Below, one piece after another: positions 12,526 to 58,683 of a stretch of 64,000 nucleotides of DNA. The notes below the pieces were generated by a model. That model was given only the letters and a program-made list of their open reading frames with translations, made no database searches and was not told the origin of the DNA. Numbering within the stretch: the first letter of the stretch is position 1; the number at the start of each line of letters is the position of its first letter. The position numbers and the translations under genes were made by a program. The DNA lies in NCBI RefSeq assembly GCF_030028105.1, contig NC_092376.1, positions 26,892,009 to 26,956,008 on the forward strand. Reading direction: 5' to 3'. The stretch comes from Mobula birostris. Lineage: Eukaryota.

Positions 12526-12685
12526 CTTCTTCCTGCTTAGCTATAAACTCTAACTCAATATAGAATGTGTATCAACTATATACACTGTGTACTATATAAT
12601 ACAACTACTATCTAGACATCCACAGAAAAGTAAATTTTAAATTGTCCCATTCAGGCCTAAAGATTTAATTACTTGGAGGATTTCT

Positions 12686-14253
12686 CAAGGATAGATTTGT
12701 TTCTATTATCAATGCATATTCAACACAGAGTGAAAAATATGGAATATAAAGCAAGAATATTATCAGATCATTCTCCTTTATTAATGACAATAATAATGGC
12801 TGATAAGGAAGAAGTGGCTTATAGATGGAGATATAATTCAACACTATTAAAACATCAAGATTTTTGTGATTTTATGAAAAAACAGATTCAATTTTTTTTG
12901 GATACAAATTTTCATTCAGTGGATGATAAATTTATATTATGGGATGCAATGAAAGCATATCTTAGGGGCCAGATAATAAGTTATACGTCTAAAATTAAGA
13001 AAGTATATATGGCAGAACTAGATCAATTGGAAAAAGAGATTACAAAAATAGAAAAAGAATCTCAAAGATATATGTCAGAAGAAAAACGAAAACAACTTGT
13101 CAATAAGAAGTTACAACATAATACGCTTCAGACATATAGAACGGAAAAAGCAATTATAAGAACTAAACAAAGGTATTATGAGTTAGGTGAGAGAGCACAT
13201 AAAATTCTTGCCTGGCAGTTGAAAACAGAACAAGCTTCCAAAACAATAAATGCAAATAGAACAAGGGCAAATAAAATATCTTATAAACCTCTTGAAATAA
13301 ATGAAACCTTTAAAAAATTTTATTCTGAATTATATCAATCAGAATCCCAAAATGATGTTAATGAGATAGAAAGGTTTTTATCACAAGTTTCTCTTCCAAA
13401 ATTGAAATTGGAAGAACAGAAGGGATTAGATATGTCTTTTACATTAAAAGAAGTTGAAGAAGCTTTAGGATCACTCCAAAGTAATAAATCTCCAGGAGAA
13501 GATGGTTTTCCACCTGAATTTTATAAAAAATTTAAAGATTTATTATTTCCTCTTTTTATGGAACTAATACGTCAAGCAGAAAAAATACATAAACTTCCAG
13601 AATCTTTTTCAACAGCGATTGTAATAGTATTGCCAAAAAAAGACAGAGATCCTATGAAACCAGCATCATACAGGCCTATTTCTTTATTGAATACGGATTA
13701 TAAAATAATAGCAAATATTTTATTGAATAGATTATCTAAATATTTACCAAAATTAATACATATGGATCAAACAGGATTAATTAAAAATAGACAATTGGCA
13801 GATAATGTAACCCGGCTACTCAGTATAATTCATTTGGCACAAAAAAAGGATGAGAAGAGTATATTTGGCACAAAAAAGGGATGAGAAGAGTATAGTAGTA
13901 GCTTTGGATGCAGAAAAAGCATTTGATAGACTAGAATGGGATTTTTTATTTAAAGTACTAGAAAAATATGGGTTAGGGACATCTTTTATAAATTGGATTA
14001 AAACTTCAAATTCTAACCCTAAAGCTAAAGTAGTGACAAACTCTCAAATTTCAACACCATTCCAGTTAAAAAGGTCAACTAGACAAGGTTGTCCACTATC
14101 ACCTGCTTTATTTGTATTGGCGATAGAGCCATTAGCAGAACTAATTAGAATTGATCCAGATATTATGGGTTTTAGAGTTAATCAGGAGGAATATAAAATT
14201 AATCTTTTTGCCGATGATGTTTTGATCTATTTAACAAACCCACAACATTTGTT
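12686..14253 (+). mobile_element. Internal L1 ORF2 fragment (end of APE endonuclease to RT FADD), flanked by a perfect 62-bp direct repeat
   Basis: SRIDLF, LSDHSP, KSPGEDGF, YRPISLLN, LDAEKAFD, TRQGCPLSP, LFADD; only lesion is a 31-bp tandem duplication at 13832-13893; repeat copies at 12624-12685 and 14254-14315. Confidence 0.92.
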
Positions 14254-15063
14254 AGAAAAGTAAATTTTAAATTGTCCCATTCAGGCCTAAAGATTTAATT
14301 ACTTGGAGGATTTCTTACTCTTTTAAGATAATGTTTTTCCTGAGGGTGGTGGTGGCTGGAGAAACTTGTGACTGTGAACCAATCTCAGGTTCTGGGGCTT
14401 CCACTGTGGTGTTTGTAGGATTTGACTCTGGGACTGCAGGAAGTGGTTCTGGCAGCTCTGGACACCTTTCTTCTCCAGCAATCGACTCTGCTCTCCTCAG
14501 CTGATCCATGTGCCAACTCCAGACAACATCAGGTGCAATCTCCACCATGCAGGAGAGTGGTCCCATTCTGGTCCTAATCTTTCCAAGTGCCCGATTTTGA
14601 TCAGCTACAGTATGTAGCCCTCTCCAGGATTGCTTGTCCACAAGTGAAGCATCGAACTTCTTTGTTTGAGGAGCCCTCAATTTGTCTCAGCTGGTTATCC
14701 TGCATCCTCCTTCTGAGATCGTCTTGAGTACAAGGGTTGACCCAGGAACAACACGGCTTGGCTGGTGAGTTGTCGGTTGTGGAGTGTGCTGCATTGCAAT
14801 ATGCAAAGAGGAAATTGGCAAGCTTCCTATTCAGTGTCAGTGTGGTGTGTTCTGCTGACGTTGCTCACAGTGTGCTCTTTAGATTCTGGACTAATCTTTC
14901 CACTAAGCCATTTGTAGCTGAGTGTTATAGTGCAGATGTAACATATCTTATTCTGTTCATTTTCAAGCAAGACTAAAATCCTTCTGCAACAAACTGTGGT
15001 ACATAGTCACTAAGTGTCCTGGAATACCAGTCTTTGAGAAGAGGCTTCCCAACACACCAACAA

Positions 15064-25442: not shown

Positions 25443-25736
25443 GGCACGTGGTCAAGTGGTTAAGGCATTGGACTAGCGACCTGAAGGTTATGAGTTCGAG
25501 CCCCAGCTGAGGGAACGTGTTGTGTCCTCGAGCAAGGCACTTAATCACACAACACTGGTGCCAAGCTGTATGGGTCCTAATGCCCTTCTCTTGGACAACA
25601 TCGGTGTCATGGAGAAGGGAGACTTGCAGCATGGGCAACTGCTGGTCTTCCATACAACCTTGCCCAGGCCTGCGCCCTGGAGAGTGAAGACTTTCCAGGT
25701 GCAGATCCATGGTCTCGCAAGACTAACGGATGCTCT
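25443..25736 (+). mobile_element. tRNA-derived SINE
   Basis: A box (TGGTCAAGTGG) and B box (GTTCGAGCC); 14-bp TSD atataCAtcctttg / atataTGtcctttg (reciprocal CpG decay). Confidence 0.8.
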
Positions 25737-26724: not shown

Positions 26725-27009
26725 TCAATCAATATCTATTATCTCCATCCCATCATTTTCATTAACATAGGAGACAGATTGCACAACCTTCTCTTCAGAT
26801 GCCGCTGGATAGAGTTCGGTGTTAGGTTTGATGATACACAGTTCTGCTGTGGGACTGGTGCTAGACAGCCTTCTGACACTTGTTGTTAAAAGGGTTTCTT
26901 CAACACTGCTTTGCAAATCCCCTATACTTTCTACATCCTCTGCCTTTGTATCATCTTTGTTCAGGCCTGAAGCAACAGGACTGGAAGATTTCCCAGAGCA
27001 TAGCCCCAT
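26725..27009 (-). CDS. C2orf15: C2orf15-like small protein (94 aa, single coding exon)
   Basis: MGLCSGKSSSPVAS...KVVQSVSYVNENDGMEIIDID resembles remembered human C2orf15 (MGFSLSKSATQVSA...KALGSVVYVKESDGLEMTDVE); similar length; LIPT1 neighbourhood; acceptor tttctgttttatctgaaaatag|27108; in-frame stop upstream of ATG. Confidence 0.75.
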   Translation of the reverse strand: MGLCSGKSSSPVASGLNKDDTKAEDVESIGDLQSSVEETLLTTSVRRLSSTSPTAELCIIKPNTELYPAASEEKVVQSVSYVNENDGMEIIDID

Positions 27010-27317
27010 TGGGTAGTCACAAAGAATCACAGCTCGTTGGCTCTTGTGTTAGGGTAAGATTTGTTCAGAAGTGTTCTGCTGCTTTTCAACTGGAATCCCA
27101 TAAGTAATCTATTTTCAGATAAAACAGAAATTAGAGTGATTAATATGCAAGGAGACTGCAGCTAAATTGTTTGATAAATTTAAGAGGTTGTGGCTGAGTT
27201 ACAGAGGAGGCAGACATAATTATTAAAAAATAAACTTTAGTTTTATTAGCTTATTATTTAGCTTGCATGTGAAACAACACTTTCTTTTCTGAGGAAACGA
27301 GAAAGTTTTAACTACGT

Positions 27318-31570: not shown

Positions 31571-31945
31571 TTATGTTACTAATGGTCCCCTAGGACAGCT
31601 GGAGAATTCATGGTCACTGCCCAATGTTGGGGGCAGACTATGGTTTCTTTGTATTATCTGGTATAACTCATCACTGACTTTCTTTATGAAGTGCAGTCTC
31701 TGCAAGCACAGGTCAATTAGAGGTTGAAATATTTTGTTCAGTCTGTTCTGGCTGTACATCGAACAACTCCTGTAATGCCTCGCCTTCTTTTGCTTTCTCT
31801 AAAACCAAGGGAACATATACAGTACTTCTCTTGGAAGATGATGTGCCTTCTTTTTGACTGGGTGAAGCTGAGAGAACAGGAAGGACCACCTCTGAAAGTA
31901 CAAAAGTGAAGCAGTTTTCAACAGTGCAGAAAGTATTAATGTCAC
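31571..31945 (-). pseudogene. Orphan exon-like segment with two overlapping long frames
   Basis: Acceptor gtttaattttcag|31945; phase-0 frame runs to 31571 with a single internal TAG; phase-1 frame gives 76 open codons to TGA at 31715-31713. Confidence 0.3.
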
Positions 31946-33119
31946 CTGAAAATTAAACTTTACGTGAATCACTGTTGAAGTATACACAAAATGTATTAGA
32001 TCAGTTTCCCTTCACCTCACCAGTAGCATCTATTTAGTGAGGTATGAATGTGGAATAGAAATGGTATTGATGAAAAATTGGAATATTACTATTTAAATGT
32101 GCCAGCCAATTTCCGCGTAAGTACTGCAGGCTTTATTGGAACTGGCAATAAAAATGAGTGAAAGCAATAATGGGCAGGACCCAAACATTGTAGGAGCCAT
32201 CTACCGGAAAGCTAACCATATGTGAGGTACAGTAAGTAAGAGATGATTTGGTCCTTGATGTTGCCTTGCTGGACGGCAGACAGCAATGTACCTTTGACAG
32301 CGTTGGCTATATTTTGCCTTTACAGGAGAAGGCCTTCAATTTTCCTCCCTGCTTGAAGTATCTTCTAAGAACCTGCTGAATGCTTGTTGCTTTCTGTATT
32401 TTATGAGTCTCAGGGCAAGTGCATGATTTGGGAATATGAGGATAATACAAGATTTTAAAAGCAGGTTAACTATTTCCTGAGTGTGTTGGCCCTGTGTGGT
32501 GTATGGGGTGTCCAGGGAGGGTTAGCACCTCTGGTGAAGGGGCTTGTTATGTTCATTTTGGGGCTGCTCAATCACCTTTGGTCCCCAACGGACACTTAGC
32601 TCTCACAAGTAGCTGTTTGTATGTGACAATGGCCACACCCCAGTACACCGCTCCGACAGGCAGGCTAAAACCAGGTGAGGGTAGCTGGCAGCTTTGTGCC
32701 TGTTCTAGGATGTGAAGTCAGCTCTGGCAGACCAGGTAGACGAGATCTACAGTGAGATCCAATGGCCAGGAAGGCACTTTTGCAATGGTCTGTGGAGAGC
32801 GAAGGGCATAATAAGGCACAGTAAATGTCATGGTCACCCACTGCAACCAAGGAAGACCACAGTCTGTGAAGCTTGTTCGTACCACTGGACTCAGACTTCT
32901 GAGGTTGAGAGAGTAGGGCTGCCCCAGTGGCTTTTCCACTTTGAAAACTCTCCCACACAGGTTTCCTGGCATTGTCAGACACAATGGACAACCACCATTG
33001 TCCTTTTACATTTAAGTGCCAATAAGATCCCTTGTGAGACAGCAGAATTAGAATACATAAACTGGCATGCCAATGTGTTTGCAATAGATCATCAAAATTC
33101 TCCCTCGCATTCTATTAGA

Positions 33120-39190: not shown

Positions 39191-41029
39191 ATCATATCCA
39201 GACAAAAAGTAGATATATATTCTTTGGGGTTCAGAAGAAATTAAAAAGATTTTACTTAAGCATATAAAATCCTTAGGACAGGGTAGATATTGAGATCATT
39301 CCATTAGAAGCCTATGGTTACAAATAGAAGAAGGTCATTAGGTGCTTCTTCTTGTAGAGGTTGGTTGATTGCTGGAATACTTTACTCAGGGTGGTTGTGG
39401 AGGTGATATCATTGAGATATTTAAAGAGGAAATAGGTAACTTATTTGACCCATTAGGGAAATGAGGCCTATACGGAAGCAGCACAGAACATTCAAAACCT
39501 ACAGAAATAATCATACTGAATGATAGGGCAGGCCTGTGGCTCCTGTTTCTTATGTTCTAATGTTCTGAATTTCATTCATAATCCAAACTAAATTAGCCCA
39601 TTTCAGTTTCAGGGCACGCGTAGAGGTGCCACATTAGAATCGATGTCACGACCCCCGGCAAACTCTTCTCATGAAGAAAACTAATAAAATAGGGGAAAAG
39701 GCCAATATTTGAAAAAGAACTGTCTTACATTTCCTGATTTAGTTAAGTACTGAGCATCTTTTACATGGCTGAAAACATTCAAAGCATGGACTTTAATGGG
39801 ATTGTCATTCTACATGTAAATATGGACCAAGACTATTCATGGAGCAGTGATGTTGTGGGGATGGAACTGGACTCTCTGACTGTGGTGTCTGAAAAGAGGA
39901 TGCTGTCTAAGTTGCATGCCATCTTGGACAATTGTCTTCCATCCACTACATAATGTACTGGTTGGGCACAGGAGTACATTCAGCCAGAGATTCATTCCAC
40001 TGAGATGCAACACTGAGCGTCATAGGAAGTCATTCCTGCCTGTGGCCATCAAACTTTACAACTCCTCCCTTGGAGGGTCAGACACCCTGAGCCAATAGGC
40101 TGGTCCTGGACTTATTTCCTGGCATAATTTACATATTACTATTTAATTATCTATGGTTTTATTACTATTTAATTATTTATGGTGCAACTGTAACAAAAAC
40201 CAATTTCCCTCAGGATCAATAAAGTATGACTATGTATGACTATGTAAACACTCAAGAAATGTAGCAATTCAGAAGTTGCCACCAGAGACATGGTAGTGTT
40301 GAGATCACCCCAACTGTTTAAAGTCAATTGTTTGCTCTTAAGCATCTTTACAAAATTAGCTACACTCATCTGCTTTCCGTAACGAATTCCATTTCATATT
40401 AACCCTCAGCATTAAAAAAAATCACTCTCCACACATTTTCTTTGAATCTGTTAGAAGTAATTGAGAATTTATCTCCCTTGTTTCCCATTGTTGAACTGTG
40501 AAGGTACTCTTGACCTAATTGCTCAAACTCTTCCATAATTTTAGTAATTTATATAAAATGCTCCATTAGCCTACAGTCTTACAGACAACCTTGTCTCAAA
40601 TTTGGGAATCCATGTTGATGTTTTTTTTCTGTATCTTTTCCAGAATGAAATTCTACCCTTTGCATATTAGGATTAAGGACATTTGTGGTTCTATTCAGCA
40701 ATCATTGGAGAGCGAAAGATTCATAATGTTTCACAGACTAACCTTGATTAACAATCAGAAGGACATAAAAAGGAGCATATTCCTATGACCTTGTTTAGCT
40801 GCTCATTTGACCTGGGATTATAAAATCACAGAGCTGGTACTTTAAAGTTAGCAGTAAGAACTTCCTGCTTGTCTTAAAGCTGCCTCGACAATGATCTTGA
40901 AAGTCTATGTTTTCTCTTTGTTTACAATAAGTAATCTGCCTTTTCAGAGACTAATTTTCCTGGCTATTATCCTGGAGAAACATCCATCAGCAAAGTGAAA
41001 ATGTCAAGACATTGTTCAGATTGCACTTG

Positions 41030-41565
41030 AGCAAAATTTAGGCCCTATATCTAAGAAAGGATATGCTGGAACTGGAGAGAGTTCAGAGAAAGTTTACAAG
41101 AATGATCCTAGGAATGAAAGGATTAATATAAATGAGGAGCATTTGATGGTTCTTAATCTGTACTCACTGGAGTTTAGAAGACTGGGGGTGGGGGGGGGTC
41201 TCATTGAAACCTACCAAATATTGAAAGGCATAAATAGAGTGGATGTGGCGAGGATCGTTCTAATGGTGGGAGAGTCCTGAGCCTCAGAGTACAAGGATGT
41301 CCCTTTAGAACAGAGTTGAGGAAGAATTTCTTCAGCCAGTGGAAGTGAATCTGTGGAATTCATTCCCACAGACAGCAATGGAAGCCAAGTCATTAAGTAT
41401 ATTTAAAGTAGAGGTTGATAGGTTTTTTAATTAGTAAGGGGGAATCAAAGGTTATGGGGAGAAAGCAGGAGACTGGGGCTGTTATTGAAAATAAATCAGC
41501 CTTGATTAAATGGTGAAGAAACTTGATGGGCCAAAGGGCCCAATTCTTATCGTCTTTGGTCTTTT
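41030..41565 (+). mobile_element. CR1 3' fragment
   Basis: PYLRKDMLELERVQRKFTRMI, LYSLEFRR, CR1 tail. Confidence 0.75.
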
Positions 41566-41616
41566 AGCTAATTTTTAAAGGTTTTATGTCATTCTCCTCC
41601 TTCAGTCCACACTCAC

Positions 41617-43951
41617 CCTCCATACTCCTCTTTCACATTACTTAGGATTTCAAAAACTTCCCCAAGGCGTAGTGAGGTAAGTATTTCTTTATCATATGTC
41701 TCAATAATATACAATTCTGAATAAAGTGGATTAGACAAGTCCAGCTTCCTATTTAAATCTCCTGTCAGTGGACTCACACTACCTAAACACACAGAGGCCC
41801 CGAAGACACTGATTGCGAATTTGTTATGGGACTTTCTTGGGGAACCGGTCAACTGAATCTCTTCAACCCTGGAACTTCTTGGATTATGGTGAATTGATTT
41901 TATCTACCTTGACCAAATTTGCTGCAAATTCTTTTGCGTTATTCCTCTCAGTCTGCTGAATCCCATGGACATACCTCTTTAATAATTCCAAATTCAGATC
42001 ATTTATTTGTGTGAAGTTTACATAGCCTCAGTGAGAAAACCACCACATTTCTCCTACTTTCTATTCTCTGCCATTCAGCTGAACTTATAACAATGTTTTC
42101 ACATTACCTTTAATGCCCTTTGCCTCAATTTTGTAGAAGCTCTTGAATCCGTGCAGTTCCTCCCTCCACATTGACTTTCTTGATGAATTCTATTAGATTG
42201 CTCAAGCACGATCAACCTTTTGGAAAAAATATGCGTTGTTATTTATTAACTTATACCTAAGGAAATACTCATCCATGTTATTCCAATTCAGGGTGTCAGG
42301 AAAAGTGATAAAGTTGAAATATAATTTATGTGTATAATAATATAAACTTATAGGAGTAATCTGTAAGAAAGAACAAGGAGCACTATTGTAAACCATTAAG
42401 TCACCTCCAAGGGTTTCAAATGGACAATGTGTGAACTATACTGCCATCTAATGCATTGAATTATCATGATACCAGCTGTAGCATGAAAAGATTATTCTTA
42501 ACTAAGCAACAACATAATCAAAGGAGTAGCTGAACAACATTAATATTGCTGGTATTTTTTAAATACTCACGGTTAGGATAACGTCAAATGAATCTGCCAT
42601 TCTTCTAGCTTCTTCGAAATGACACAGTCTTCTGTTGGTAAGGTATAAATGTCAGTTTGAGTAGTTGTACAGAAAGCCTGAACATCTGGGTGGGATCAGC
42701 AGCTAACACAAAGCTCAGGATCTCTTTCTAGTCCATCTTCTATTATATAAAAGCAATCTTGATACCCTTAGTAAAGAGAACATTACTGTGGCCTAACATT
42801 GCAGCCAACGATACAATGATAAACAAGAATCTTTGTTTTCTTCCTGTAGCTCTCATACATTCAATCATAATCTTTTAAATTGTAGCCACAATAGGATACA
42901 ATATTATGGGCAACCAGAACGCAGAATAATCTTGTTTACTATCAGATCCCAGTTTCTTATACATTCACCATTTTACCCTCCTTCAGAGTTCAGGATAAAT
43001 TATTATTCAATTCAGAAGGGTAACAGTGCTCTCTGCCGACCTGCTGGGAGATCGCTCTTGAATATATTCAAAATAAATTGCTTTAAACCAGTTCCAAATC
43101 TAAGTCGATTTTAACATTTATTTTAATTTTAATTTTAATTTGTTCAATGCCTTATACATACATTTTAGAAATATAGTTCATATTTATAAACCAAGAATGT
43201 GAAATCCTCCAAGAGGACTACAACCTTGCTGTGGGGTTTGGAGGCTTGCGTGCCTCAATGACCTGGAGATCTATGTTGGCTGGAGTCAGGGCTTTGTGCC
43301 TTGGCTGTTGGTAGGGTCACCCATGCCAAACAAGTCAAAGGGTAGAGGCCTGGCTAGAGTGATCCACCACCGGCCCTCCAGGTTCGGGTGTTCAGACCAG
43401 GGCTAACAACACTTACAGGTCCAAAAAAATGGTTACGGAAACAGCAATAAAGAATCCTATATATGTGTGTGACGGTATGGACAGACAGAGATGGAGGACC
43501 TTAAATGCTGCCCTAAATGCCAACGGTGTAATGGGCACCAAGAAGAAAGACTGTGATGTACGTCTTTTAACTTGTAAAGTAATACGAATTACCAAAACAT
43601 AATATGAGAATTCATGTTGAAAATCTAATGGACAAAGTGAATATTGGTCTTGTACATTGATTCTTCACCTTTGGAGATCATGACTAATTGATACAGTTCT
43701 TATGAGAACTGAGTAATTGTCAGCATTGACCATTAGTGAGCTTAGCAGCTCGTGCATTCTTGTAGGGGTCCACAGCACTGCAGCTCCCAGCTGGCAATTC
43801 TACAATTCTGCCCCTGGTATAAGCAGAGAATATTAGTATAGGAAAGGAAAAGTATCTCTGGGGTTGCTAATACCTTGAAGGTACAATTAAAATGCATTGT
43901 GAACCTTCTGTACATTGCTTAACACTGCAATCTGCTCTACTAAGCAGAAAC
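41617..43951 (-). pseudogene. Cluster of small exon-like segments of an unidentified, probably decayed gene
   Basis: AG/GT-bounded segments 43874-43951 (GFCLVEQIAVLSNVQKVHNAF*LYLQ), 42571-42631 (RLCHFEEARRMADSFDVILT|gtgagt), 41617-41782 (GSVSPLTG...VFEILSNVKEEYG|gtgagt). Confidence 0.3.
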
Positions 43952-44351
43952 CTGTGGATTGATAAATTGGGAAAAGCTCACAGCAACAATACCTTTACTT
44001 GGAAAAGTATCTAGAAGGAAATTAAATTAAGTATTGAATATGATAGCAATGATTTTCTGAAAGGAGGGTTCAAAAGGATCATTTTATTATCAAAGTATGC
44101 ATGTACAATACAGCTCTGATATTCATCTTCTCCAGGTAGCCATGTACAGAAAGGCCAAGGGAACTGTTGAAAGAAAAGACATCAACCCCCACTCCCCTCC
44201 AACTGCATGAAAGAGAAACAAAACTAGCAAACCCTAAATGCCCCACACCCTCCCTTAAACAAAAAAATCTAACAGATTGCCCGTAGGGAAATTGGCAGCT
44301 GGAATATCAAACCCCAAACCAGATAATAATATAAACATTAGTGAACCCAAT

Positions 44352-44640
44352 CAGCACCATCGTAGTGTAGTGAATGGCAAGATGTGACTTAGCAAGTGGC
44401 ATTCTGGAGTTCAAAGTTCAATCACAGAGCCATCTGTAAGCAGTTTGTACGTTCTTCCCATGAACCACGAGGGTTTCCTCCGGGTGCTCCAGTTTCCTCC
44501 CACAGTCCAAAGACCTACTGGTTTCTAGATTAATTGGCCATTGTAAATTGTCCTGTGATTAGGCTAGTGTTAAATAAGTGGCTCGTTAGGCCAGAGCGGC
44601 CTGTTCCATGCTGTATCTGTAATAAATAAATAAATAAAAT
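44352..44640 (+). mobile_element. V-SINE (HE1-like tRNA-derived SINE)
   Basis: V-domain GGGTTTCCTCCGGGTGCTCCAGTTTCCTCCCACAGTCCAAAGAC, B-box-like GTTCAATC, (TAAA)n tail. Confidence 0.8.
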
Positions 44641-47600
44641 ATAATAACACTGAGCAACAAGCACAAAATGCTGGAGGAACTCAGCAGGTCGGGCAACATT
44701 TATAGAGAGGGCTAAACACTTAATGTTTCAGCTTGAGACCCCTCATCAGGAGACCCTTTATTCCTCTCCATAGATGCTGCCAGACCATCTAAGTTCCTTC
44801 AGCATATCGTGTTTGCTGCTCTGGCATTTGAAAAATCTCCTGTGTTTATGATAATGCTGAGGTTATTCCCATATCTAAGTTATTTTCATCCTTTTGGTAA
44901 ACTCTATCAGAATGATCAAGCAGTTGTGCTTCTCATTTTTTTGTCATGACAGCAATCAGCAGACAGGATATTTGCTGTAATAAAACTGAGGGATTGGCAA
45001 TTACTATCTAAACACTGAAATTTTATACCCAATAAATTCTAGCAGTTTACCAGAAACACATATGCTCAAAATCTAATAAGCATATATCACAGATATGAAG
45101 ACCTTAACTCTCTGATAGGAGCAGCATACTACTATCAAGCTTAAGCCTATAGTTTAAAAGGGTATTTTCATGACCAATCACTGCAGTGGGATTTCAGAAC
45201 TCTCCACTAAGCATTTTTTTAAATCAACACAATAAAGTTCTTTTGAATCTGTGCTCCTGCTCTAGCCTGCTGGTGGTTGGCCATGCTATTTTGCTTCATT
45301 CGTAAAATAATTTATTTTAAAGTAAAATGCAGACAAAATTTTATCATTAATGTACTAATACAAGGACATGAAAGCAATTAAATTTTGATGCATTGATCGA
45401 CTCTTAGGTCAGTATATACTGCCGCTACTGAACAGAATTTTGAGAATTGTGGATTTGTATAAAGGACTTCTATGATGTAAAATCTCTCTACTTGTCAAGA
45501 AATTCTAAATAACTGTCCTATCTATTTTCCATTACTATTTGTTATTTTCAGTAGCATACTGTGAATCATAAAGCAATAACAAGAAAAATGCATTTTGGCC
45601 GATACCAAAATATTCCATAACATTGCATCTTTCAATTAAATGTTAGCCTAAATTTTCCTCCTTTTTGCTTATATTGCTATACTTAACTATTACTTAACTA
45701 ATACAGTACATCGCAGTGTTGGTATTTAATCTACTTCTCCACTAGACAAAATACTAATCCAGAAAAATCAATTTCCTTGTTGTTAAAAAGTCTCAATGAA
45801 TTTAGTTTTTAATGAATACACATTTCTTATTTTTAAATGAATGCATGAAGCTTTTACTGTTTGAGGTTTAGCTTCAGTTTGGATTGTTGTATACATCATT
45901 TGATCATAAGTTTACACGTGGACCCTTTGCTTTTAGGATTTGTGTTATAAAGTGCTTGGAATACTTTCTACACATGTTATTTATTTATTAATAGTTTAGT
46001 CTGGTTTATCAATATCAGTTTATTTCTTACCCTGTTCAAATCTGCTTTGCTTGAATGCAACACCTTGCCATTTATGCTTTGACCTGTTAAATCTAACAGC
46101 AAAGTCAATCTCCATGTTGACATCAGCCTTCCTATGATGCACCCTCCGTCATACTGCTGTCCATTTTATTCACCACTAAACCTTGTTGCATAATCTATTT
46201 TAAATGACTACTTTGAAAGAGTGCAGACAAAACTTTTCATAGATGTACTAAAACTAGTACAATAGAAATAATTCAACCTTCAGCAGGCCAGGCAGCATCT
46301 GTGGAGAGAGAAACAAGATTAAAGTTTTAGGATGGTGACTTTTTATCTGAAAGCTGTGTTTGCAATCATCAATTGAAACATTATTTTTTTTCTCTCTTAC
46401 TCTCCACAGACCTGCCAAGTATTTCCAGCATTTTGATATTGGTTTATTATTGTTGTCTGTACCAAAGTACAGTGAAAATCTTGTCTTGCATACTGTTCAT
46501 GCAGATCAAATTATTACACAATGCATTGAGCTAGAACAAGGTAAAACAATAACAATGCAGAATAAAGGGTAAAAGATACCAAAAGAGTCTGAGGCCTCGT
46601 TGGTCAGTGTTGAACATGAATTCTCCATCCAGCTGTCTAGATACACAAGCCAGGACAGAAGGATATCGAGACCAAGCTGTTGCCCATGTAGCAGACTCCC
46701 AGAATCCTCCTCTCCGTGCACCTGATAAACCCAAAGGAACAGCAGACCGATACAGTTTGGCACCAGAGACGTGCGGAAGTTGCCCATCAGCGTTGAACTC
46801 AACATAGGACTGCCTTGGGGTTTACTCCTGAAGCCTTCCCCGTGAGTCCATGAGTGGGTATAGCCAGAAGGCAGGGGAGGTTTGAGATCAGAGTTTTCCT
46901 TCTCCTAGGTGAGCTGCCACCCATGGCTGACGAGCCCCATCTGCCTGAAGTCACTGGCTTTAAGATGCCAGCAACTCACCTTTGCTCATCTCCTGTCAGT
47001 AGAAATGGTTCTGCTGGGTTTAGTAGCTAAGGCAGACATGAAGGCCAGGAGCTGGTCTTGCTTGTTAGATGCTAATTGAGGCACACGTCATTGAGAGCAT
47101 TTCATAGGTAGTCGGACCCTGTCCTGATTACCACCCAAGGTTATACCAACCTTAAGGAACCTACCAAAAGTATGCAGTCCAGGTAGACAATCAAGTGCAT
47201 GATCATAACGAGGTAGATTATCATAAAAGAGTCTGAGAACAGTAGGGTAGAAGTTGTCCTTGAGCCTGGTGGTGCAGCTTACTACAGGTTTCCAATACTG
47301 CAATATGTTTTCTTTCGGATTCTCATTCAGTGTTTTGGCTCCAAGATAATGTTGCTCTACAAAGACATCTAAATGTATTCTAAAAGTTTGATGCCTTTGC
47401 TATTCAGACCAGTCCATTTCTCCCAGATGGAAAGATTAAAATGTTCCATTATGACTCATATTTCCCTAATCTCTGCATTCTTTCTCTTCCCATTATGCCA
47501 CAGCTAGCAAGAGATCCATAGGTAATTACTAGTCATGTCTTGCACCCTTAACCTTTGGCTATTGAAGAAACTTCTGGAAATGACACAATTAGAGAAATGT

Positions 47601-48891
47601 TTGCTATTAAGCCACATTTTCAGATACTGTAAGATCTATTTGTATGAAGGTAGCTATTCGAGCAGTCATCATGCATGTATTTCTCAATGACAATAAACGA
47701 GGACTGAGTGTCCTCATAATCTAATCTAATCTAATCAACCCTCATGTTCACGGCCACATACTCGTATATTAACATATGGAAATTAGTAAAAATATACAAA
47801 GATCTAGTGAATTGAGAGGGAAAGGTATCACAATACTCCGTGAAGAAGTAACCTGGTCATCTTTTCCTGATTGGTTCAATGTTTGACTACATTTGATGCA
47901 GCTAATTTTTCCTAAAATTGTTAAAAAAAACTATTGAATTGATGCGGAAGATCAAGCACCACTTTCTTAAGCCAATTTGAACAAGAAATAACTCTGCCCT
48001 ACATCCAAAGAAGTTAAAAAATAAGTCTACCTTCCAAACTTTAGTGTCAAATACAAATTATAGTACTCACTGAATTTGAACGATCAGTTAAAAAAAAGTT
48101 TCCTCAGCTATAACACAGAACTGCGAGTGTTAATCTGAAACAGTACTGATAAACTTTTCCCATTTATTTTTCTCCAATTATTTATTAAGGTCTTGTTCAA
48201 AGCATATTCACTGACCTTAGGCACAGATCATTTTTCTTTGAAAGAACTAGAATGTCGTTCTTCTTTCTCATCTAATTCTGAGAACACAGTCTTCATCAAC
48301 TTTAATTCCAATTCAGAAGGTGTAATAGTGTCTGTCCTGGATGAGTCCTGAACTTTAGAAGGATAATGCCTGCATGCTAATGGTAGGACAGTTTGTGTCA
48401 CTTAATAAGGTTTGTTTGGATTCCATGGATACTGTAATAACCTTCTGTGGTTGACCTTGCTATAGGGGAATTCACGTTTATCAAATGCTGGCTGATCTCC
48501 GTGACTGAGCATTTAATAGTTTATCATTAACAGAGGCATTATGTAGAATGGCTGAGTATGTGGCACATAGTCAACTGTTGAAGAAAGTCATTTGTTCTGC
48601 AGCCTCTGATCTTTCTGGCACATAATGCCCAATGGGGCAGAGAGTGTGACTATTGTTTATCCATTAAAACAGACAGAAATTACAGTGGTCTCATGGAATT
48701 ACATTCTGTCCATCTGATCCATGATCACTCCCACCTAATTCATTCATCCCAATCAGTATAACCTGCAACTCCATTATAGGTTAACCACTCCCCCTTAAAT
48801 CCATGTGTGCTGTTCACAGGATAAAGATAGTAAGAGAAACTGTTCTAATATCTGCCATTGTTTAGCTGAAACTCATGTGGATTAGTACAGG

Positions 48892-49078
48892 TAACACGCA
48901 CAAAATGCTGGACGAGCTCAGCAGGCCAGGCAGCATCTATGGAGAAAAGTACAGTTGATGTTTTGGGCCTGAAATGTCAACGGTACTTTTTTCCATAGAT
49001 GCTGCCTGGTCTGCTGAATTCCTCCAGCATTTTGTGTGTGTTGCTTGGATTTCCAGCATCTGCAGATTCTCTCTTGTT
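48892..49078. mobile_element. PLE-derived palindromic unit inserted as one event
   Basis: Inverted arms; 14-bp TSD TGGATTAGTACAGG (48878-48891, 49079-49092). Confidence 0.75.
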
Positions 49079-49088
49079 TGGATTAGTA

Positions 49089-49168
49089 CAGGGGTTCCCA
49101 ACCAGGGGTCCATGGATGCCTTGCTTAGTGGCATTGGTCCATGGCTTTAACATGTTTTGGAACCTCTG
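49089..49168. mobile_element. 80-bp hAT MITE
   Basis: CAGGGGTTCC...GGAACCTCTG ends; 8-bp TSD GATTAGTA (49081-49088, 49169-49176); related copy near 5294-5368. Confidence 0.7.
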
Positions 49169-50319
49169 GATTAGTAGCATGTTGACGATGGAGGGATGTC
49201 CATTTGAAACAGAGGTGAGGAGGAATTTCTTTAGCCAGAGAGTGGTGAGTCTATGGAATTCATTGCCACAGGTGGCTGTGGAGGCCAAGTCATTGGGTAT
49301 ATTTAAGGCAGAGGTTGATAGATTCTTGATTAGTCAAGGTGTGAAGGGATACAGGGAGAAGGCAGAAGATTGGGACTGAGAGGGAAATGGATCAGCCATG
49401 ATGAAATGACAGAGCAGACTCAATGGGCCAAATGGCCTACTTCTGCTCCTATATCTTAAAATGAACGAGGTTGCCAAATAGCAAGTCAAAGTAAATTATT
49501 GTCAATGTATACGTACGTCTCCATATACTACCGTGAGATTCATTTTCCTGCAGGTATTCACAGTAGAACATGTCATAGAATCAATCAGAACTGCACACAA
49601 GAAATACTGACAAACAACCAAGATGCAAAAGATGACAAACTGTGCAAATACAAAAATGATAATAATAATAAATAAAGCAAATAAATAATACTGAGATAGG
49701 AAGAGAAGTATGAGAAATAGAAAGAGTAGTTTCCGAAGTAAGAAAATAGAAGAAGGGGGTTCTGCAGGAGTCGGTATTGGGGCCATTGCTTTCAACGTTA
49801 TATGTCAGTGATCTGGACGATGGAATTTAGAGCTTTGTGGCCAAGTTTGCAGATGATACAAAGATCAGTGGAGGGGCAGGTGGTGTTGAGAAAGCAGATT
49901 AGGAGAGTGGCCAAAGAAATGGCAGATGGAATATAGTATATGGAAATGTATGGTCATGCAGTTCTGTAGTGGGAATAAAGGCAAAGACTACTTTCTAAAC
50001 AGGGAGAAAATTCAGAAATCAGAAGTGCAGAGGGACTTGGGATCTCATTGAAACCTATCAAATACTGAAAGGCCTGGGCAGAGTGAACATGGAGGTGGTG
50101 TTTCCTATCGTAAGGGAGTCTGGGATCGGAGGGCAAGACTCAGAATACAGGGATGTCCTTCTAGAAAAGAGATGAGGAGGAATTTCTTTATCCAGAGGGT
50201 GGTGAATCTGTGGAATTCATTGCCATGGACTGCTGTGGAGGCCAAGTCATTGGGTATAATTAAAGCAGAGATTGGTAGATTCTTGATTAGAAAGGGCATC
50301 GCAAGTCATGGGGACAACA

Positions 50320-51105
50320 CAAGTTTCAAGTGTAATTATCATGCAACTATGCATGAACATAGCCAAATGAAACAGCATTCCTCTGGGGCCAAGTACCAAA
50401 ACACGTTACCAACAGCACACAGCACACAGCATAAATAGCATGCATGGTGACAATTTTAGAATACATACAGTTACAAAGAGAAAAAGATATATAGCCCAAG
50501 TCCCTGAGTTGTCTGCTAGTTCTTCCACCAAGCGAACACCAGAGGGCAGCACTGAATAAGCATCAGAGATCAGCACCAAGTGGGCACTGGAGGGCAGCAC
50601 CAAAGGTAGGTGCCAGCCCCAACCCAATACAAAATCCAGTGGCACGCAGCCAGCACCGGTGCCTCCTTTGCCGGTGACCACAACCGGCAACTCCGAGGCA
50701 TGGGGGCTTTATCCGCACAACAACCGAGGCAACACAACTCCCCCATTGGTCACACCAATGAACCAGTGAACTGAACTTTCAGTACTCTGCGTTACCAATG
50801 TCCAACAGGGTCTTGCGATGACAGTGAAAGCATCTCAGACAATCACTCACGGCTTTTTTTTGGACCGCACATCCCACCTCGGCACAACAGTACGCAACAA
50901 GTCCAGGCAATGACACAACGGTACACAGTAAGTCCAGCTCCGTCGCTATCAAGCAACTCGCCGATGGGATGGTCCTGCATTATTGATGTTCTTGGTTTCC
51001 AGCAGTGACTTGCGATCATGAAAGAAACATACAGGATGAACAAGCACACCTTTGATTGAACCCGGAGTGGTCGCTGTGTCAGAGCGCGCCGCCATCTTAC
51101 CGGAA
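50320..51105 (-). mobile_element. Non-autonomous LINE-related element (same family as about 8555-9055)
   Basis: Shared sequence with 8555-9055; 5' end CCGGTAAGATGGCGGCG; splits a CR1 tail. Confidence 0.55.
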
Positions 51106-53943
51106 GGGGATTGAGCGGGACAATAAATCAGCCATGACGGAATGGCGGACCATTCTCAGTGGGCCAAATGGCCTAACTTCATCCCCGTGCCTTATGGTTT
51201 TATGGTCTAAGAAAGAGAAATAGAAAGAAAAGTAATGAGTCTGGGTTGTGAGTAACTGCTGACGTATATTCATATAATGGTTGTTTGCAGAGATATAAGA
51301 CCTTACAACCCAAAGATTGGCTTTGTTGTAGGAGTGTCCACATCAGGATCAAAAGCACAGGGGAAATCAAATACACAACACATCAGAAAATATGGTTCCA
51401 ACTTTGAATGCATGGTGTGTGCAATGCAATGCTTCTGTTATATAATATAATTGGAGCCTAACGTTTAGAAAATGCACCTCTTCGACAATAAATTTACTTT
51501 GAACCTTGAACACTGAAACTGCTTTTATTTTTAATATGATGGATAGAGAATAGTACATTAATGCACACATTCCTCTCCGCAATTCACCTGAACATCAAAC
51601 ACAGAAGATTATTCCTTCCTACAACTATTGAGACATTTCCCCTTGAAAACAACCTTTATAGCCTCTCAACTTTAACTGATTGATGGATTTGAAGGAATTT
51701 TTTGATTCTTTTATTTCTATTGATACTGTTAACTCATTCATTTCAAGGAAGTCTGCTCTTTTAATTAGAATTGGAGTCATGGTTATAGATTTATACAGCA
51801 CAGAAACAGGCCCTTCAGCACAATGTGTCTATGCCAGCCATGGGGCCTTTCTGAGCGAGTCCAATTTGCATGTATCAGGTCCATATCTCTCTGAATTTTT
51901 CCTATCCATGAACATGTGAAAATTTCCTCTAAACACTGTAACTGTATCCTTCACAACCACTTTCTCTATCAGATCTTCCTACACGCCTTCTATTGCCTGT
52001 GTGAAAAACTTGCTCCTCTGGACCCTTTTAAATCTTTCCTCACTCACCTTGAACCTATGTGCTCTAGTTTTTGACTCCCCTACCCTGGGAAAAAGACTAC
52101 GCCCCTCAGGATTTTATAAACCTCATCTACATTCCAGAATAAATAGTCTCTACTTGTAACTTAAGGAGAGACTAGTCTTGCAACATCCTTGTGAATCTTT
52201 TCAGATTCCCCCTCTCCTTTAATCATGGGCTTCCTGCACGTAGCTTGGTGACCAGAAAGGCACACAAAATTGCAGCTGTAGTATCACCAACACTCTATAC
52301 AGTTGCAACATGATACACCAAGTCTAGTACTCAGTGCTTTGTCAGATGAAAACAAGAATGCCATATCCACAGTACTGTAAATGGCAATGAGGTTCACTCC
52401 ATGATAAGCCCAAGACTTTTGCCAGTACTGTACTTCTACGCTGGGTCTCAGCTCCACAACACTCCCCAGGGGCCTGTTGTTCAGAGTGTAAGTCCTGCCC
52501 TGGTTTAACTTTCCTAAATGCTTTCCTGTCTCACCCTTCAGTAACTTACCCATCATTGATGTTAGGCTCACAGGATGGTAGTTCAGAGGATGTGCTCTCC
52601 AATGCATTGATAAAATTGTGAAAATATTAAGCGACGATGAAAGGTTACACAAACTCCTTTTGAGTAGCCTGATAGCAGAATGCTGCACGTGGTAGAGACT
52701 TGATGTTAAAAACAAAATGATAGAAATGTTCTGCAGGTCAGAAAGCGTAAGTATATAGTATTTAAATTTACACTCAGTGGCCACTTTATAAGATGCACCT
52801 GTACACCTTCTCGTTAAATCAAATATCTAATCAGCCAATCATGTGGCAGCAACTCAATACATAAAAGCATGCAGGCATGATCAAGAGGTTCAGCTGTTGT
52901 TCAGACCAAACATCAGAATGGGGAAGAAATGTGACCCAGTGACTTTGACCGTGGAATGATCGTTGGTGCCTGGTTTGACTATCTCAGAAACTGCTGAGAT
53001 CTTAGCCTGACAGTATAGAGCAATAGAATCATAGAATATTACAGCACAGAAACAGGCTCTTTGGGGCATCTAGTCCATTCCAACCTGATCTGCTTAGTCC
53101 CATCCACCTGCACCTGGAACATATCCTTGTAAACCCCGTCCATCCACATGCATATCCAAAATTCTCTTAAATTTTGTAATTAAACTCACATCTACCACTT
53201 TCCCCGGCAGGTTACTTCTGCACTTGCAAAACCCTATGGGTGAAGGAGCTCTCTCTCAGATACCCCTTAACCATTTCACCTTTCACTCTAAAGTACCCGT
53301 GAACATTCACTATATTTTTAGACGTTAACACAGATACAGTAGAGTTTAATAAGTTAAATATATTGATGATTTCAAAAACTGCAAATTTACATGAAATAAC
53401 AAATTGTTTGCATGATTCTCTAAAGAAAAATAATGATCGATTATTTTAGAATATCCTTCTCAATTCATCTTGTGAACATTTGTTGAGATTTTTCGAAGTA
53501 TTATTGATGCTGAATTTCTGACAATGCTTTTATGTCTTAAAGCAGAATAGCGCTCGGCAACATAAGAGACAGAAGACAAAATCCTATACAATGCATTGCT
53601 TTGGAAGGGATCAATTAATTCAAGTGGTTTAGTTGTACGTTTGTAAATATTGGGGTAAGCAACAATAACATTCTCTTAATAGTCTTAATAAAAATATTGT
53701 ATTAATTATTCAGTCATCATAAATCTGAGACCATGACAACTGGACTATGAATATTAATAATCCAATTTTTATCTTACTTCTGAGATGTGTTAGAAAAATG
53801 TGTCTTCATATTCAATAAGAAATTTAATTGAAATTGTATGAGATTAACCCTCACTATACATGTAAAATCAATATTCAAGGTCATTAAATGAGCTAATTGT
53901 TACAAAAGCTCATCTAGAATTTAGGGAAGGTATCTGCCTTTCC

Positions 53944-54164
53944 AAGCTGGCTAATGGCATAGTGGCATCAGTGCTGGACTTCGGAGCGAAGACTCCCGAG
54001 TTCGAATCCAGCTGGCTCCTGTGCACGCTTTCCACCCATGCTGGGTTGAGCATCAAGCTAGCAACTCGGCCTTGTAAAAATAAGAAAGCCTGCTAAAAAA
54101 ACGCAGTCATGACGGCGTCCCGATGACTCCACTCGGAGTTAAGTGCTTTCTTCTTTCTTCTTCT
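53944..54164 (+). mobile_element. tRNA-derived SINE inserted in a pseudo-exon
   Basis: A box TGGCATAGTGG, B box GTTCGAATCC, (TTC)n tail; perfect 11-bp TSD TCTGCCTTTCC (53933-53943, 54165-54175). Confidence 0.85.
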
Positions 54165-54351
54165 TCTGCCTTTCCTACACAGACTATCTATGATTGCAGA
54201 CTCAACAATATGATTGATTTTCACCTGCCTTGGGGGAAATATAGATGGATCATAAATGCTTGCCATATCATGTGAACAAAAAAGGTTCAATAGAATATAC
54301 TGTAACAAAAAACCTAAACCTAACTCCAAGGGTTTCCCTGCAGGAAATTTT

Positions 54352-54896
54352 CACACAGTGACCACTTTATCAGGTACACCTGTTCAATCATGCAAATCAG
54401 TCAATCTAATCAACCAATCATGTGGCAGCAACTCAATGAATAAAAGCATGCATATACGGTCAAGAGACTCAGTTGTTGTTCAGAACGGGGGAAGAAATGT
54501 GATCTGTGACTTTGACTGTGGAGTGATTGTTAGGAGCCAGACAGGGTGGTTTCAGTATCTCAGAAACTGCTGATCTCCTGGAATTTCCACGCACAACAGT
54601 CTCTAGAGTTTACAGAGAATGGTGCAAAAAACAGAGGATCATCTAGTGAGTGGCAGTTCTGTGGACAAAAACACCTGATTAATGAGAGAGGCCAGAGGAG
54701 AATGGTCAGAGTGGTTTGAGCTGATGGAAGGTGACAGTAACTCAAATAACCAAGTATTACAACAGAAGTGTGCAGAAAAGCATCTCGGAATGCACAACAT
54801 GTCAACCCTTGAAGTGGATGGACTACAGCAGCAGAAGACCATGGAGATACACTCAGTGGCTACTTTACTAACTTAATAAAATGGCCACTGAATGTA
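54352..54896 (+). mobile_element. Non-autonomous Tc1-family element (partial copy also at about 52770-53000)
   Basis: TIR-like CAGTGACCACTTTATCAGGTAC ... AATAAAATGGCCACTGAATG-TA; transposase HTH remnant. Confidence 0.7.
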
Positions 54897-55389
54897 GCTT
54901 TAAATTGTTCACTAGAAGTCAGACTTCAACATCAGAAATTTGTCTTAAAATATTAACAGTTGGGCAATGTTTGTTATAGTGTGTTTGTGATAGTCTATGT
55001 GGATTCACCCATTGAAACTAGCCCTCTATATTCCCTCTGAGAAAACAAGGCCATAACTGAGGCTTGTTAATATCTAGGAGCACAGTGGATGAAGCAGCAT
55101 CAGTAAAGGGAAACAGACAGTCAACATTTCAGGACAAGACCCTTCACCTGAGAAGTCGAAGGGAAATAACCAGTGCGAAGAGGTGAGGGCATGGTGTAGG
55201 GCCAGAGCTGGAAAGCGATAGGTGGATTCAGATGGGGGGGGTGGAGGAGAAAGGAAAAGTGGAAATAGCAACAGAGGCTGACAGGTGTCAAGTGGAGGTA
55301 ATAACGGGCTGCAGGTGTTGGAACCTGTTACAAAAGGAAGGTGGAACTAAATAAAGAAGGTGGTGTAGGCAGATTGGGACAGCGGGGTG

Positions 55390-56055
55390 AGGGAACCCAA
55401 CTGGAAGAGTTGGAGAGGGAATTCACTTGGATGAGTGTGAGAGATTACACCCAGATGGAAGAGTTGGAGAAGAGATCCAGTTGGAAGTGTTGGAATGGAG
55501 ACCCAGTTGGAAGTGTTGGAGAGGGGATACACAGATGAAAGATTAGGAGAGGACACCCAGTTGGAAGAGTTGGAGATGGACCAAGTTGGAAGAGTGTGAG
55601 AGAGGGGACACAGCTGGAAGAGTGTGATAGAAGGTTCCCAGTTGGAAAAGCTGGAGAGGGGACACAGCTGGAAGAGTGTGTGAGAGGGGACCCGGTTAGA
55701 AGAGTTGGAAAGGAGACATGGTTGGAAGGGTTGAAGAATGTGAGAGAAGGAATCCAGCTGGAAGAGTTGGAGAGGGGACTCGATTCGAAGGTTTGGAGAG
55801 GGAACTCAATTCAAAGGTTTGAAGAGGGAACTTGATTTGAAGGTTTGGAGAGGGGACTCGGTTGGAAGAATGTGTGAGAGGGAACTCAGTTGGAAGAGTT
55901 GGAGAGGAGACCCAGTTGGAAGAGTGTGAGAGAGGGAATCCAGCAGGAAGAATTGGAGAGGGGATCTGGCTGGAAGGTTTGGAGAGGGGATCTGGCTGGA
56001 AGGTTTGGAGAGGGGATTCGGCTGGACGATTTGGAGAGGAGACCCAGTTGGAAGG
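55390..56055. repeat. Degenerate purine-rich minisatellite (about 26-29 bp unit) inside a PLE fragment
   Basis: Repeated CAGYTGGAAGAGTTGGAGAGGGGA; flanked by reverse-oriented PLE sequence (about 55075-55385 and 56055-56220). Confidence 0.8.
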
Positions 56056-57269
56056 CTATATGGTGGGGAAAGAAACAGGGTCAGGGACCTGGGAAGTTGG
56101 GGGGGGGGGGGAAAGAGAGACTGGGAGTTTGGTGTGTGAGGATAGACCAGGAGGAGAGAGAAAGTGACATAGTGGGAGAAGGTTAACTGAAACTGGAGAA
56201 TTCAATCTTTATGCCCCAGGCAAAATATGGTGCTTGTCATCAGTTTTTATTTGCCACAGTTACCAGCATCTGCACTCTTGTGTGTATCCAAGCTTGTGTT
56301 TCCAGTACTCATACTGTGATTTTTTTTATTAGTAACTTTGTACCTTTTCCTCTTTTTCTTCTTTATTTCTTCCTTTCCCCCAAACCAGTGTGCTTTCTGC
56401 TCCAACATACAACGTGCTAGAGGAACTCAGCAAATCAGGCAGCATCTATGGAGAGAAATGGACAGTCAACTCAGGAACATTACCTCATTAGTCATATTTT
56501 TTGCACTATTCATTTATTTTGTAATTTATACTAGTTTGATGTCTTACACTGTAATTTCAGATCCTATCAGACAGTGATAATAAACCTGATTCTGATTCTG
56601 ACATTTTGGGTCAAGACTGTTCATCGGGACTTCCAGAACCAAAAGGTTAAATGTCTGTTTCTCTCCACAGATCTGCTGATGTCCTTCAGTATGTTGTGCA
56701 TTGCTTCAGATCTCAGCACTTGTGGTATCTTGTGCCCCATGCTATCTCTAGAATATTTCTACAGATGTACTGTGGAGAGCACTCTGACTGCTTGCATCAC
56801 TGTCTTATATGGAGGGTCCAATGCCCAGGATTGAAAGAGGCTGCAGAGGTTTTTAGACTTCTCCATCACTCACAAGCTGCCACACCATTGAGGACATCTT
56901 CAAAAGTCAGTGCCTCAGGAAGTCAACAGCCAACGTTAAGGATCTTCATTAGCCAGGATTCTCTTTTCACTGCTACCATCAGGAAGGAGGTAAAGAAACT
57001 TGAAGACCCTCACAACGTTCCGTGTACAACTTCTTTCCCTTTGCTATCAGATTTCTGAACGGTCCATGAACCCATCAACACTTACCTCGCAGTTCCTCTT
57101 TTGTCCTTTTTATTTGTTCATTTTTTTGTAATTTATTGTAATTTCTCTACGTTTTGATCTATACCACTGCTACAAAAGAACGTATTTCACGACTTATGTC
57201 AGTGATAATAAACGGGATTCTGATTCTGACCTGACTGTCAGATTTGCCTGTGTTTCGGCTACAGTAATG

Positions 57270-57548
57270 GAGGTGGGGGCATCCCAGAATCCCCCTCGGC
57301 AGTAAATTGCCTGTATAACATCCGCCGGGTGTTGTGCGGTACTCCCGCCTGTAGATGGCGGCATGCGAGGGCGAAACGCGTCCCCTCAGCATTTGCAGTG
57401 ACAGTGACAGACGCTGCTGAAAGTTGAAAGTGGAACGAAGTGCTGCATGTAACCGTGGAAGCACTCGGAAGGGGATCGGGTGAGTGAATTTGCCTCACAT
57501 TTCAGTCTGCTCCCGCTGCTTGCCAGTACGCCTGTTTGGGTTTTGCAG
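57270..57548 (+). promoter_or_regulatory. LIPT1 promoter, non-coding exon 1 and predicted 69-nt intron (57480-57548)
   Basis: CpG-rich; CCTGTAGATGGCGGC (YY1/CTCF-like) at about 57348-57362; donor CGG|GTGAGT at 57480; acceptor ggttttgcag|57549, 7 nt before the ATG. Confidence 0.65.
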
Positions 57549-57555
57549 CGACCTG

Positions 57556-58683
57556 ATGCCCTACCTGCATGCTGGTCTCCGAGCAGCTTGGAGAGGGCTC
57601 TCCCCTGCTCGGTACGCCACTCTGACCGCTTTGCAAGACCCTAAGGCCGGCGCCCTTGTCCTGAAGTCCCTATCCACCGATGTCTACGAGAACCTGGGGC
57701 TGGAGGACTGGCTGCACCAGTGCGTGGAGCCCCGGGACCGGGAGATGCTCCTGCTCTGGAGGAATAGCCCTGCCGTGGTCATCGGCCGCCACCAGAACCC
57801 CTGGCAGGAATGCAACTTGAAGCTCATGAGGCACAAGGGCGTCCAGCTTAGCCGCAGGAGAAGCGGGGGAGGCACAGTCTACCACGACCTGGGCAACATT
57901 AACGTGACCTTCTTTACCTCCAAGAAGCGATACGACAGGCGCGGCAACCTGGAACTGATCATCTCTGCCCTGAAGGGAATTCGACCTCACTTGGACATCA
58001 TGGCCACCGACAGGCTGGATCTGCTGCTCAACCGCGCCTTCAAGATCTCGGGGACAGCCTCCAAGATCGGAAGGACCACTGCTTACCACCATTGCACCTT
58101 GCTTTGTAATTCAGATAGCTCCCTATTGTCCTCTGTGCTCTGCACTCCTCATCAGGGTCTGAAAAGCAATGCTACCCCTAGTATACCTGCCATTGTGAAA
58201 AACCTCCAGGAAGAGGATCCCACTCTCACTTGCGACATCTTGATGGATGCTATTGCAGCAGAATATTCAAGGCGCCATGGCCTCCAGAACCAAATCTTGT
58301 TCATAGACCCCAAAGACACATTGGTGCTGCCAGGAGTTGACAGGTTTACGCAAGAGCTTAAAAGCTGGGACTGGATCTATGGAAGAACCCCCACGTTTAA
58401 TGTCTGTCACACCTTCTCTGTGGACCATAACTTATCAAAGGCAGAAGTTAAATTGAGTATGAATATCAACCGTGGCCGGATTGAAACCTGTAACATTGAT
58501 GTCTTGTCTGACTGGCTGCCTTCGGAAATGTGTGACCAGTTGTCCACAGACCTCATCGGCAGCAAGTTTTGTCCCACTGAAACGATGGTTTTGGCAAATG
58601 CCCACTTAAGGGTTTGTCCCCAGGATAGTATACTCCATAATAAATGGAATATGCTTTGTGAGCAAGTTATGGCAATTATGTAA
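57556..58683 (+). CDS. LIPT1: Lipoyltransferase 1, mitochondrial (375 aa, single coding exon)
   Basis: LplA-family motifs LWRNSPAVVIGRHQNPWQECN, RRRSGGGTVYHDLGN, KISGTA, YHHCTLL, SWDWIYGRTP; Arg/Leu-rich N-terminal presequence; ATTAAA at 58855. Confidence 0.97.
   Translation: MPYLHAGLRAAWRGLSPARYATLTALQDPKAGALVLKSLSTDVYENLGLEDWLHQCVEPRDREMLLLWRNSPAVVIGRHQNPWQECNLKLMRHKGVQLSRRRSGGGTVYHDLGNINVTFFTSKKRYDRRGNLELIISALKGIRPHLDIMATDRLDLLLNRAFKISGTASKIGRTTAYHHCTLLCNSDSSLLSSVLCTPHQGLKSNATPSIPAIVKNLQEEDPTLTCDILMDAIAAEYSRRHGLQNQILFIDPKDTLVLPGVDRFTQELKSWDWIYGRTPTFNVCHTFSVDHNLSKAEVKLSMNINRGRIETCNIDVLSDWLPSEMCDQLSTDLIGSKFCPTETMVLANAHLRVCPQDSILHNKWNMLCEQVMAIM

Follow-up and report, generated by a model that had tools for sequence, protein, structure and literature searches.

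Eight minus-strand stretches (segments A to H, Table 1) lying 5' of a lipoyltransferase gene, which we take to be LIPT1, were analysed in the genome of Mobula birostris, and on balance they probably represent the old relic of a protein-coding gene, whatever its family, an LRRIQ3-like gene included. The window, that is, the whole stretch of DNA that was analysed, comprises 64,000 nucleotides (RefSeq assembly GCF_030028105.1, contig NC_092376.1, positions 26,892,009 to 26,956,008), and all coordinates given here are those of the window. Segments B, D, E and F carry stop codons, and a high-copy insertion with its target-site duplication lies between A and B; a spliced contig uses the donor at position 48216 of segment E, skips segments F, G and H and enters an exon at 42216-42108. 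It is likely that the relic was formerly coding, and hints of a dead gene are provided by the common register of A and B, the phase-1 junction of D and E and a variant at position 46147 which opens the frame of G.

Spliced RNA from the locus

Splicing was observed in sequencing run X12, which was taken by guess to be RNA and which derives from a different sample filed under the same organism code. Record 13 of this run is a contig of 1742 nucleotides (nt) at a depth of 28.4, with 0 differences from the window; its positions 1576-1742 correspond to 48216-48382 and its positions 1406-1512 to 42108-42214, and it joins 48382-48216 to 42216-42108 at canonical GT/AG ends. Between the two pieces, 63 letters were left unplaced, a number which equals a 61-nt exon plus 2 shared GT letters, and the depth of the bin 42305-42965 was 2.71, which is 28.4 x 63/661. 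As both the length and the depth arithmetic fit exactly, 42631-42571 was assigned as the middle exon. The frame of E meets a stop 9 codons into this exon. The preliminary description had proposed that the segments form a chain of exons; the donor at 48216 is indeed used in this RNA-type contig, but the RNA passes over F, G and H and enters exons which lay outside that proposal.

Counted from the acceptor at 27108 of a C2orf15-like exon further along the minus strand, the other 1405 letters of record 13 would end at 25704, just within a stretch that by eye looks like a short interspersed nuclear element (SINE), and the contig would be expected to break at that point because of the SINE-looking sequence. 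The spliced RNA therefore likely continues into the C2orf15-like gene, although other exons may intervene. Two further runs, X21 and X22, gave almost no cover at 41644-42965, an absence from which nothing can be concluded, and no splicing was seen in shallow RNA-run contigs over 45794-46243, two of which span the boundaries of G.

A second contig from X12, at a depth of 2.6, carries 2 additional bases at position 46147, which would leave segment G open over its whole length between acceptor and donor (55 codons); a gain of 2 bases opens G at only 19 of 163 positions. The extra-base form may represent either the ancestral allele or an error. Position 46147 is in its own right a candidate polymorphic 2-nt frameshift, as the window and a single shallow contig from a different sample disagree there. 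The share of words of 47400-48700 found in other runs was approximately 0.48 for organism B and 0.10-0.15 for organisms C to G, and was not counted as evidence.

Stops, frameshift and insertion

Contigs from X1, a DNA run which is possibly from the source sample and so not independent, showed 0 differences from the window over 44757-46308, 47712-48928 and 53032-53978. This comparison took in segments B, C, E, G and H. Given this agreement, consensus errors can be dismissed as the source of the B and E stops and of the G frameshift. That an intact gene appears broken through assembly errors is extremely improbable: one shallow contig does depart from the window at the G frameshift, but the X1 contigs are identical to the window at the B and E stops and at that frameshift, and the insertion is a clean repeat copy. 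Assembly error, put forward in the preliminary description as a possible cause of the stops, is thus an unlikely and largely refuted escape, with most segments reproduced letter for letter.

The insertion gave a read depth of 17150 in its bin, compared to approximately 10-15 in unique bins. By eye it is SINE-like, with what we take to be A- and B-box-like motifs; no tRNA was found in it with ARAGORN, and an Rfam search of 41000-57500 returned 0 matches. When the insertion is discounted, the reading frame that opens with the ATG at 54266 and runs for 34 codons continues in register into that of segment B (chance 1 in 3).

Reading frames, splice sites and composition

All of the peptides quoted in the preliminary description were recovered in the minus-strand translations, stops included. 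The chosen frames of A to H, whose limits and frames were picked after the fact, contain 13 stops in 459 codons, compared to 5.5% stop trimers in the region, and the 0 stops in 54 codons of segment G were counted over two frames; for D, E and F the stretches counted were 51588-51756, 48216-48572 and 47442-47573. Open runs of at least 70 codons numbered 29 in the region against 14 in shuffles; repeats are included in this count, which was not used as support.

Good splice donors were found at the ends of D, E and G, where 8 (after 51588), 8 (48216) and 7 (46031) of the 9 consensus letters match, and acceptors are present at 48574, 47573 and 46194. Only 4 minus-strand donors match at least 8 of 9 letters; two of them end D and E and the other two lie in repetitive-looking stretches. 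Between D and E, the frames with the best scores meet in phase 1 (chance 1 in 3).

Amino-acid composition was compared with 500 dinucleotide shuffles using two backgrounds. With a hydrophilic-biased background, 2 of 8 segments exceeded the shuffles (E, P =0.003; C, P =0.03), while with a BLOSUM62-derived background none of the 8 did so at P <0.05 (the best was E, P =0.076). The composition of segment A was not above that of shuffles. With the BLOSUM62-derived background, the controls scored P =0.002 (LIPT1) and P =0.12 (the C2orf15-like open reading frame, ORF), and since an intact ORF scores only P =0.12 the test is weak on short pieces.

Table 1. Positions of the segments, exons and other features in the window
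Feature	Position	Strand	Remarks
Segment A	54165..54266	-	ATG and 34 open codons, ends at the insertion; candidate relic start; 0/34 stops
Segment B	53778..53935	-	In register with A after discounting the insertion; 2 stops/52 codons; X1 contig identical
Segment C	53466..53675	-	70 open codons, end without GT; 0/70 stops; no homologue
Segment D	51588..51757	-	Exon-like, strong donor, weak acceptor; 3/56 stops; best frame ends in phase 1
Segment E	48216..48574	-	Best candidate relic exon, phase-1 acceptor; 3/119 stops; donor used in RNA
Segment F	47440..47573	-	Good acceptor, no donor at 47440, weakest piece; 5/44 stops; skipped in RNA
Segment G	46031..46194	-	AG...GT, exon-like; two open half-frames with 2-nt offset at 46147; skipped in RNA
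Segment H	45222..45311	-	30 open codons, no AG acceptor; 0/30 stops
Insertion	53933..54175		232 nt, high-copy; 11-bp target-site duplication at 53933 and 54165
Exon, 61 nt	42571..42631	-	AG...GT; inferred second exon of spliced RNA; ATG, then stop after 14 codons
Exon, 109 nt	42108..42216	-	AG...GT; exon of spliced RNA; record 13 piece 42108-42214 plus splice sites
LIPT1-type lipoyltransferase ORF	57559..58683	+	Intronless coding region; Pfam LplA-B_cat E=1e-50
C2orf15-like exon	26728..27108	-	94-codon ORF from Met at 27009; Pfam DUF5547 E=0.013, sub-threshold

Identity of the proposed relic

The segments were searched for homologues at several levels. A word-based search of segment C against longer proteins gave 15 candidates and 0 matches, and an Atlas search with the same segment found no homologue. 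The read-through of segment E found 0 matches in an exhaustive phmmer search over 1.84 billion representatives; an intact annotated copy in a close ray would be expected there if the library includes ray gene models, in which case the result would favour either an old loss or no gene. In PDB there was no homologue for B, C, G or 31722-31952 (best E=1), and among the sets of 9, 30 and 12 pieces screened against Pfam, which included single pieces as well as the minus-strand frames of the main non-repeat parts of 25.7-57.5 kb, only LIPT1 passed the cut-off. Single-sequence AlphaFold models (mean predicted local distance difference test scores of 33 and 55) were too poor for use. A suspected likeness of some pieces to TFIIA subunits was dropped, with no support in Pfam, PDB or Atlas. 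The literature available to the search, which left bioRxiv supplements outside, contained nothing on this locus in cartilaginous fish.

The preliminary description had named the locus as LRRIQ3-like, and this identity found no support in the searches made. LRRIQ3 presumably consists of a leucine-rich start, an IQ motif and a helical, coiled-coil end, and the order of the segments and their rough length (approximately 460 codons) would suit such a layout. A loose leucine-rich pattern does occur twice in segment B, but the same pattern occurs 18 times in the region, these two included. A strict leucine-rich repeat (LRR) pattern was found 0 times in the region and Pfam found no LRR in the read-through frames, where decay could hide repeats; the strict IQ pattern was likewise found 0 times in the three minus-strand frames, and Pfam found no IQ motif. 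In cattle, LRRIQ3 lies with FPGT and TNNI3K (available part of PMC3751663), while the neighbours here are LIPT1 and a C2orf15-like exon, an arrangement which matches the TSGA10-C2orf15-LIPT1 locus (available part of PMC10804543). A paralogue of LRRIQ3 at the LIPT1 locus may be compatible with this mismatch. On this evidence a dead LRRIQ3 paralogue with LRR, IQ motif and helical tail, which would be one form of the gene relic, is rather unlikely, and the locus is not filed under LRRIQ3. The fuller history, in which an ancient and so far undescribed vertebrate LRRIQ3 paralogue stood head-to-head with LIPT1, was lost in mammals and died in rays, leaving one exon as the leader of the C2orf15-like gene and a frameshift which is still polymorphic, is more doubtful again and must be called improbable.

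Weighing of the explanations

If the segments are the relic of a gene, a protein-coding gene on the minus strand, divergent to LIPT1, would have decayed long ago; stops, the 2-nt frameshift in G and the retroposon between A and B would have accumulated after its death. The strong donor at 48216 would have been kept in use in a transcript encoding none of the old protein, with the 3' part of E (48382-48216) spliced as a likely non-coding leader, presumably of the C2orf15-like gene. As to the decayed gene divergent to LIPT1 which the preliminary description had envisaged, a decayed and partly exon-like locus is plausible, while no search puts a name to the gene.

Several observations weigh against such a relic. 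The stop load of segment F is above background. The AG/GT splice sites attributed to the segments in the preliminary description were found in part, as given above, but four proposed boundaries lack them (no GT at 47440 and 53463, no AG at 51770 and 45311), such that F has no donor and C and H each lack one splice site. Donors matching at least 7 of 9 letters are about equally frequent on the two strands (22 minus, 23 plus), and the combined composition score of A to H does not reach significance with the BLOSUM62-derived background (z of 1.2, falling to 0.7 when E is omitted). No homologue was found in Pfam, PDB, the 1.84 billion representatives or Atlas. The spliced form is carried by a single contig, with its joints deduced from aligned pieces and 1405 of its 1742 letters unmapped, and the window form at 46147 is also present in X1 and in one X22 contig.

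The close rival of the dead gene, which we regard as quite possible, is that the region was never coding and consists of the exons of a non-coding leader or of a long non-coding RNA (lncRNA), namely the 3' part of E, 42631-42571 and 42216-42108, together with chance frames in AT-rich DNA. The composition, donor and homology results just given all speak for it, as does the sole spliced form, which is non-coding over these exons. It requires, however, that the A-B register, the D-E phase match and the frame-opening variant at 46147 are all coincidental, and the failed homology searches count for little against a gene, because a search with the intact C2orf15-like ORF recovered no relative either. 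A further reading joins A to H, the pieces at 41.6-42.6 and 31.7-31.9 kb and the C2orf15-like exon into a single long ancestral gene whose coding function would survive in its last exon only. The RNA does connect E with the 42-kb exons, 36 codons are free of stops in one frame of 42216-42108, and the Pfam match of the C2orf15-like exon starts 5' of its Met, with an in-frame stop between acceptor and Met; but the frame of E is soon closed within the 61-nt exon, segment H ends in a stop and no long protein containing 41616-41903 was found (144 candidates), making a single long gene very improbable. The decayed coding gene remains the explanation that we prefer.

Neighbouring genes and other features

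The product of the LIPT1 ORF is a lipoate-ligase-fold protein. The ORF is covered by contigs from all 3 RNA-type runs, starting at 57404 or 57450, and the kilobase from 57 to 58 kb is rich in CpG. In or before LIPT1, single-base mismatches between X1 contigs and the window were observed at 57944 (also in X12), 57279 and 57422, which are probably alleles. When metagenomes were scanned with LIPT1, 5 distant loci were obtained (35-44% identity), none of which was used. Between the relic and the LIPT1 promoter lies a G-rich degenerate tandem repeat (55347-56055), which yields several spurious long ORFs.

The match of the 26728-27108 exon to DUF5547, which we take to be the C2orf15 family, covers profile positions 18-121 of 122 but is under the Pfam cut-off. 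Apart from a stop at codon 20, its frame is open from the acceptor, and the part that matches DUF5547 starts 5' of the Met; the C2orf15-like protein may have lost an N-terminal extension. This exon and LIPT1 are on opposite strands in the window, and in human the two genes are, we assume, on the same strand. A comparison of the C2orf15-like ORF with proteins of similar length gave 5 candidates and 0 matches, and an exact look-up of the LIPT1 and C2orf15-like ORF sequences found neither of the two.

Exon-like minus-strand pieces also occur between the relic and the C2orf15-like exon (42571-42631, 42108-42216, 41613-41998 and 31722-31945). The piece at 31722-31945 has 74 open codons, scored above shuffles with either background (P =0.003 and P =0.036) and has a phase-1 acceptor which is compatible with how the 42108 exon ends. 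No homologues were found for these pieces (41616-41903 against longer proteins, 144 candidates and 0 matches; 31722-31952 in PDB; 31722-31943 in Atlas; Pfam). They are possibly a second decayed gene.

At a CpG island at 10-12 kb lies a short ATG-led exon (10224-10277, minus strand) with a GT donor at its end, which we presume to resemble the start of long TSGA10 forms; the gene that begins at this island (10-11 kb) may be TSGA10. Reverse-transcriptase frames of 407 and 144 codons at 12661-14263 are taken from their motifs to be those of a long interspersed nuclear element.

Discussion

Unitary pseudogenes and relics carried in transcripts are both known kinds of element, and there is nothing unusual in a dead-gene relic of which part is reused in a transcript. 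As with the unitary pseudogenes described in the available part of PMC2864566, the locus consists of exon-like remains that are unprocessed and still in place between conserved neighbours, and that have acquired stops, a frameshift and an insertion; unlike them, no functional orthologue was identified, and for this reason the lost gene is without a name. What may be retained of an exon-intron structure is one donor used in RNA and the in-phase pair D and E, with four proposed boundaries without GT or AG.

Relics of lost genes are known to persist in transcripts (available part of PMC10195156). As in the gene-loss relics in lncRNAs of that study, a relic exon and its splice donor are retained here in a spliced transcript, but this one is likely to run on into the coding gene next to it rather than standing alone. 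LIPT1, TSGA10, C2orf15, LRRIQ3 and MITD1 are absent from the supplement of that study in the part available.

In cattle the gene order is TSGA10, C2orf15, LIPT1 and MITD1, as given in the available part of PMC10804543. The present locus resembles this mammalian block in that the window contains both LIPT1 and a C2orf15-like exon and, further out, a candidate for the first exon of a TSGA10-like gene; in cattle no further gene is given between C2orf15 and LIPT1. Any likeness to LRRIQ3 would be one of layout, with neither LRR nor IQ detected and with different neighbours (PMC3751663, available part).

In its present state the locus adds one more probable gene relic, with no family named. If an intact orthologue were found in sharks or chimaeras, it would add a case in which an exon of a dead gene is reused in the transcript of a neighbour, and it would name a gene which is missing from the mammalian LIPT1 block.

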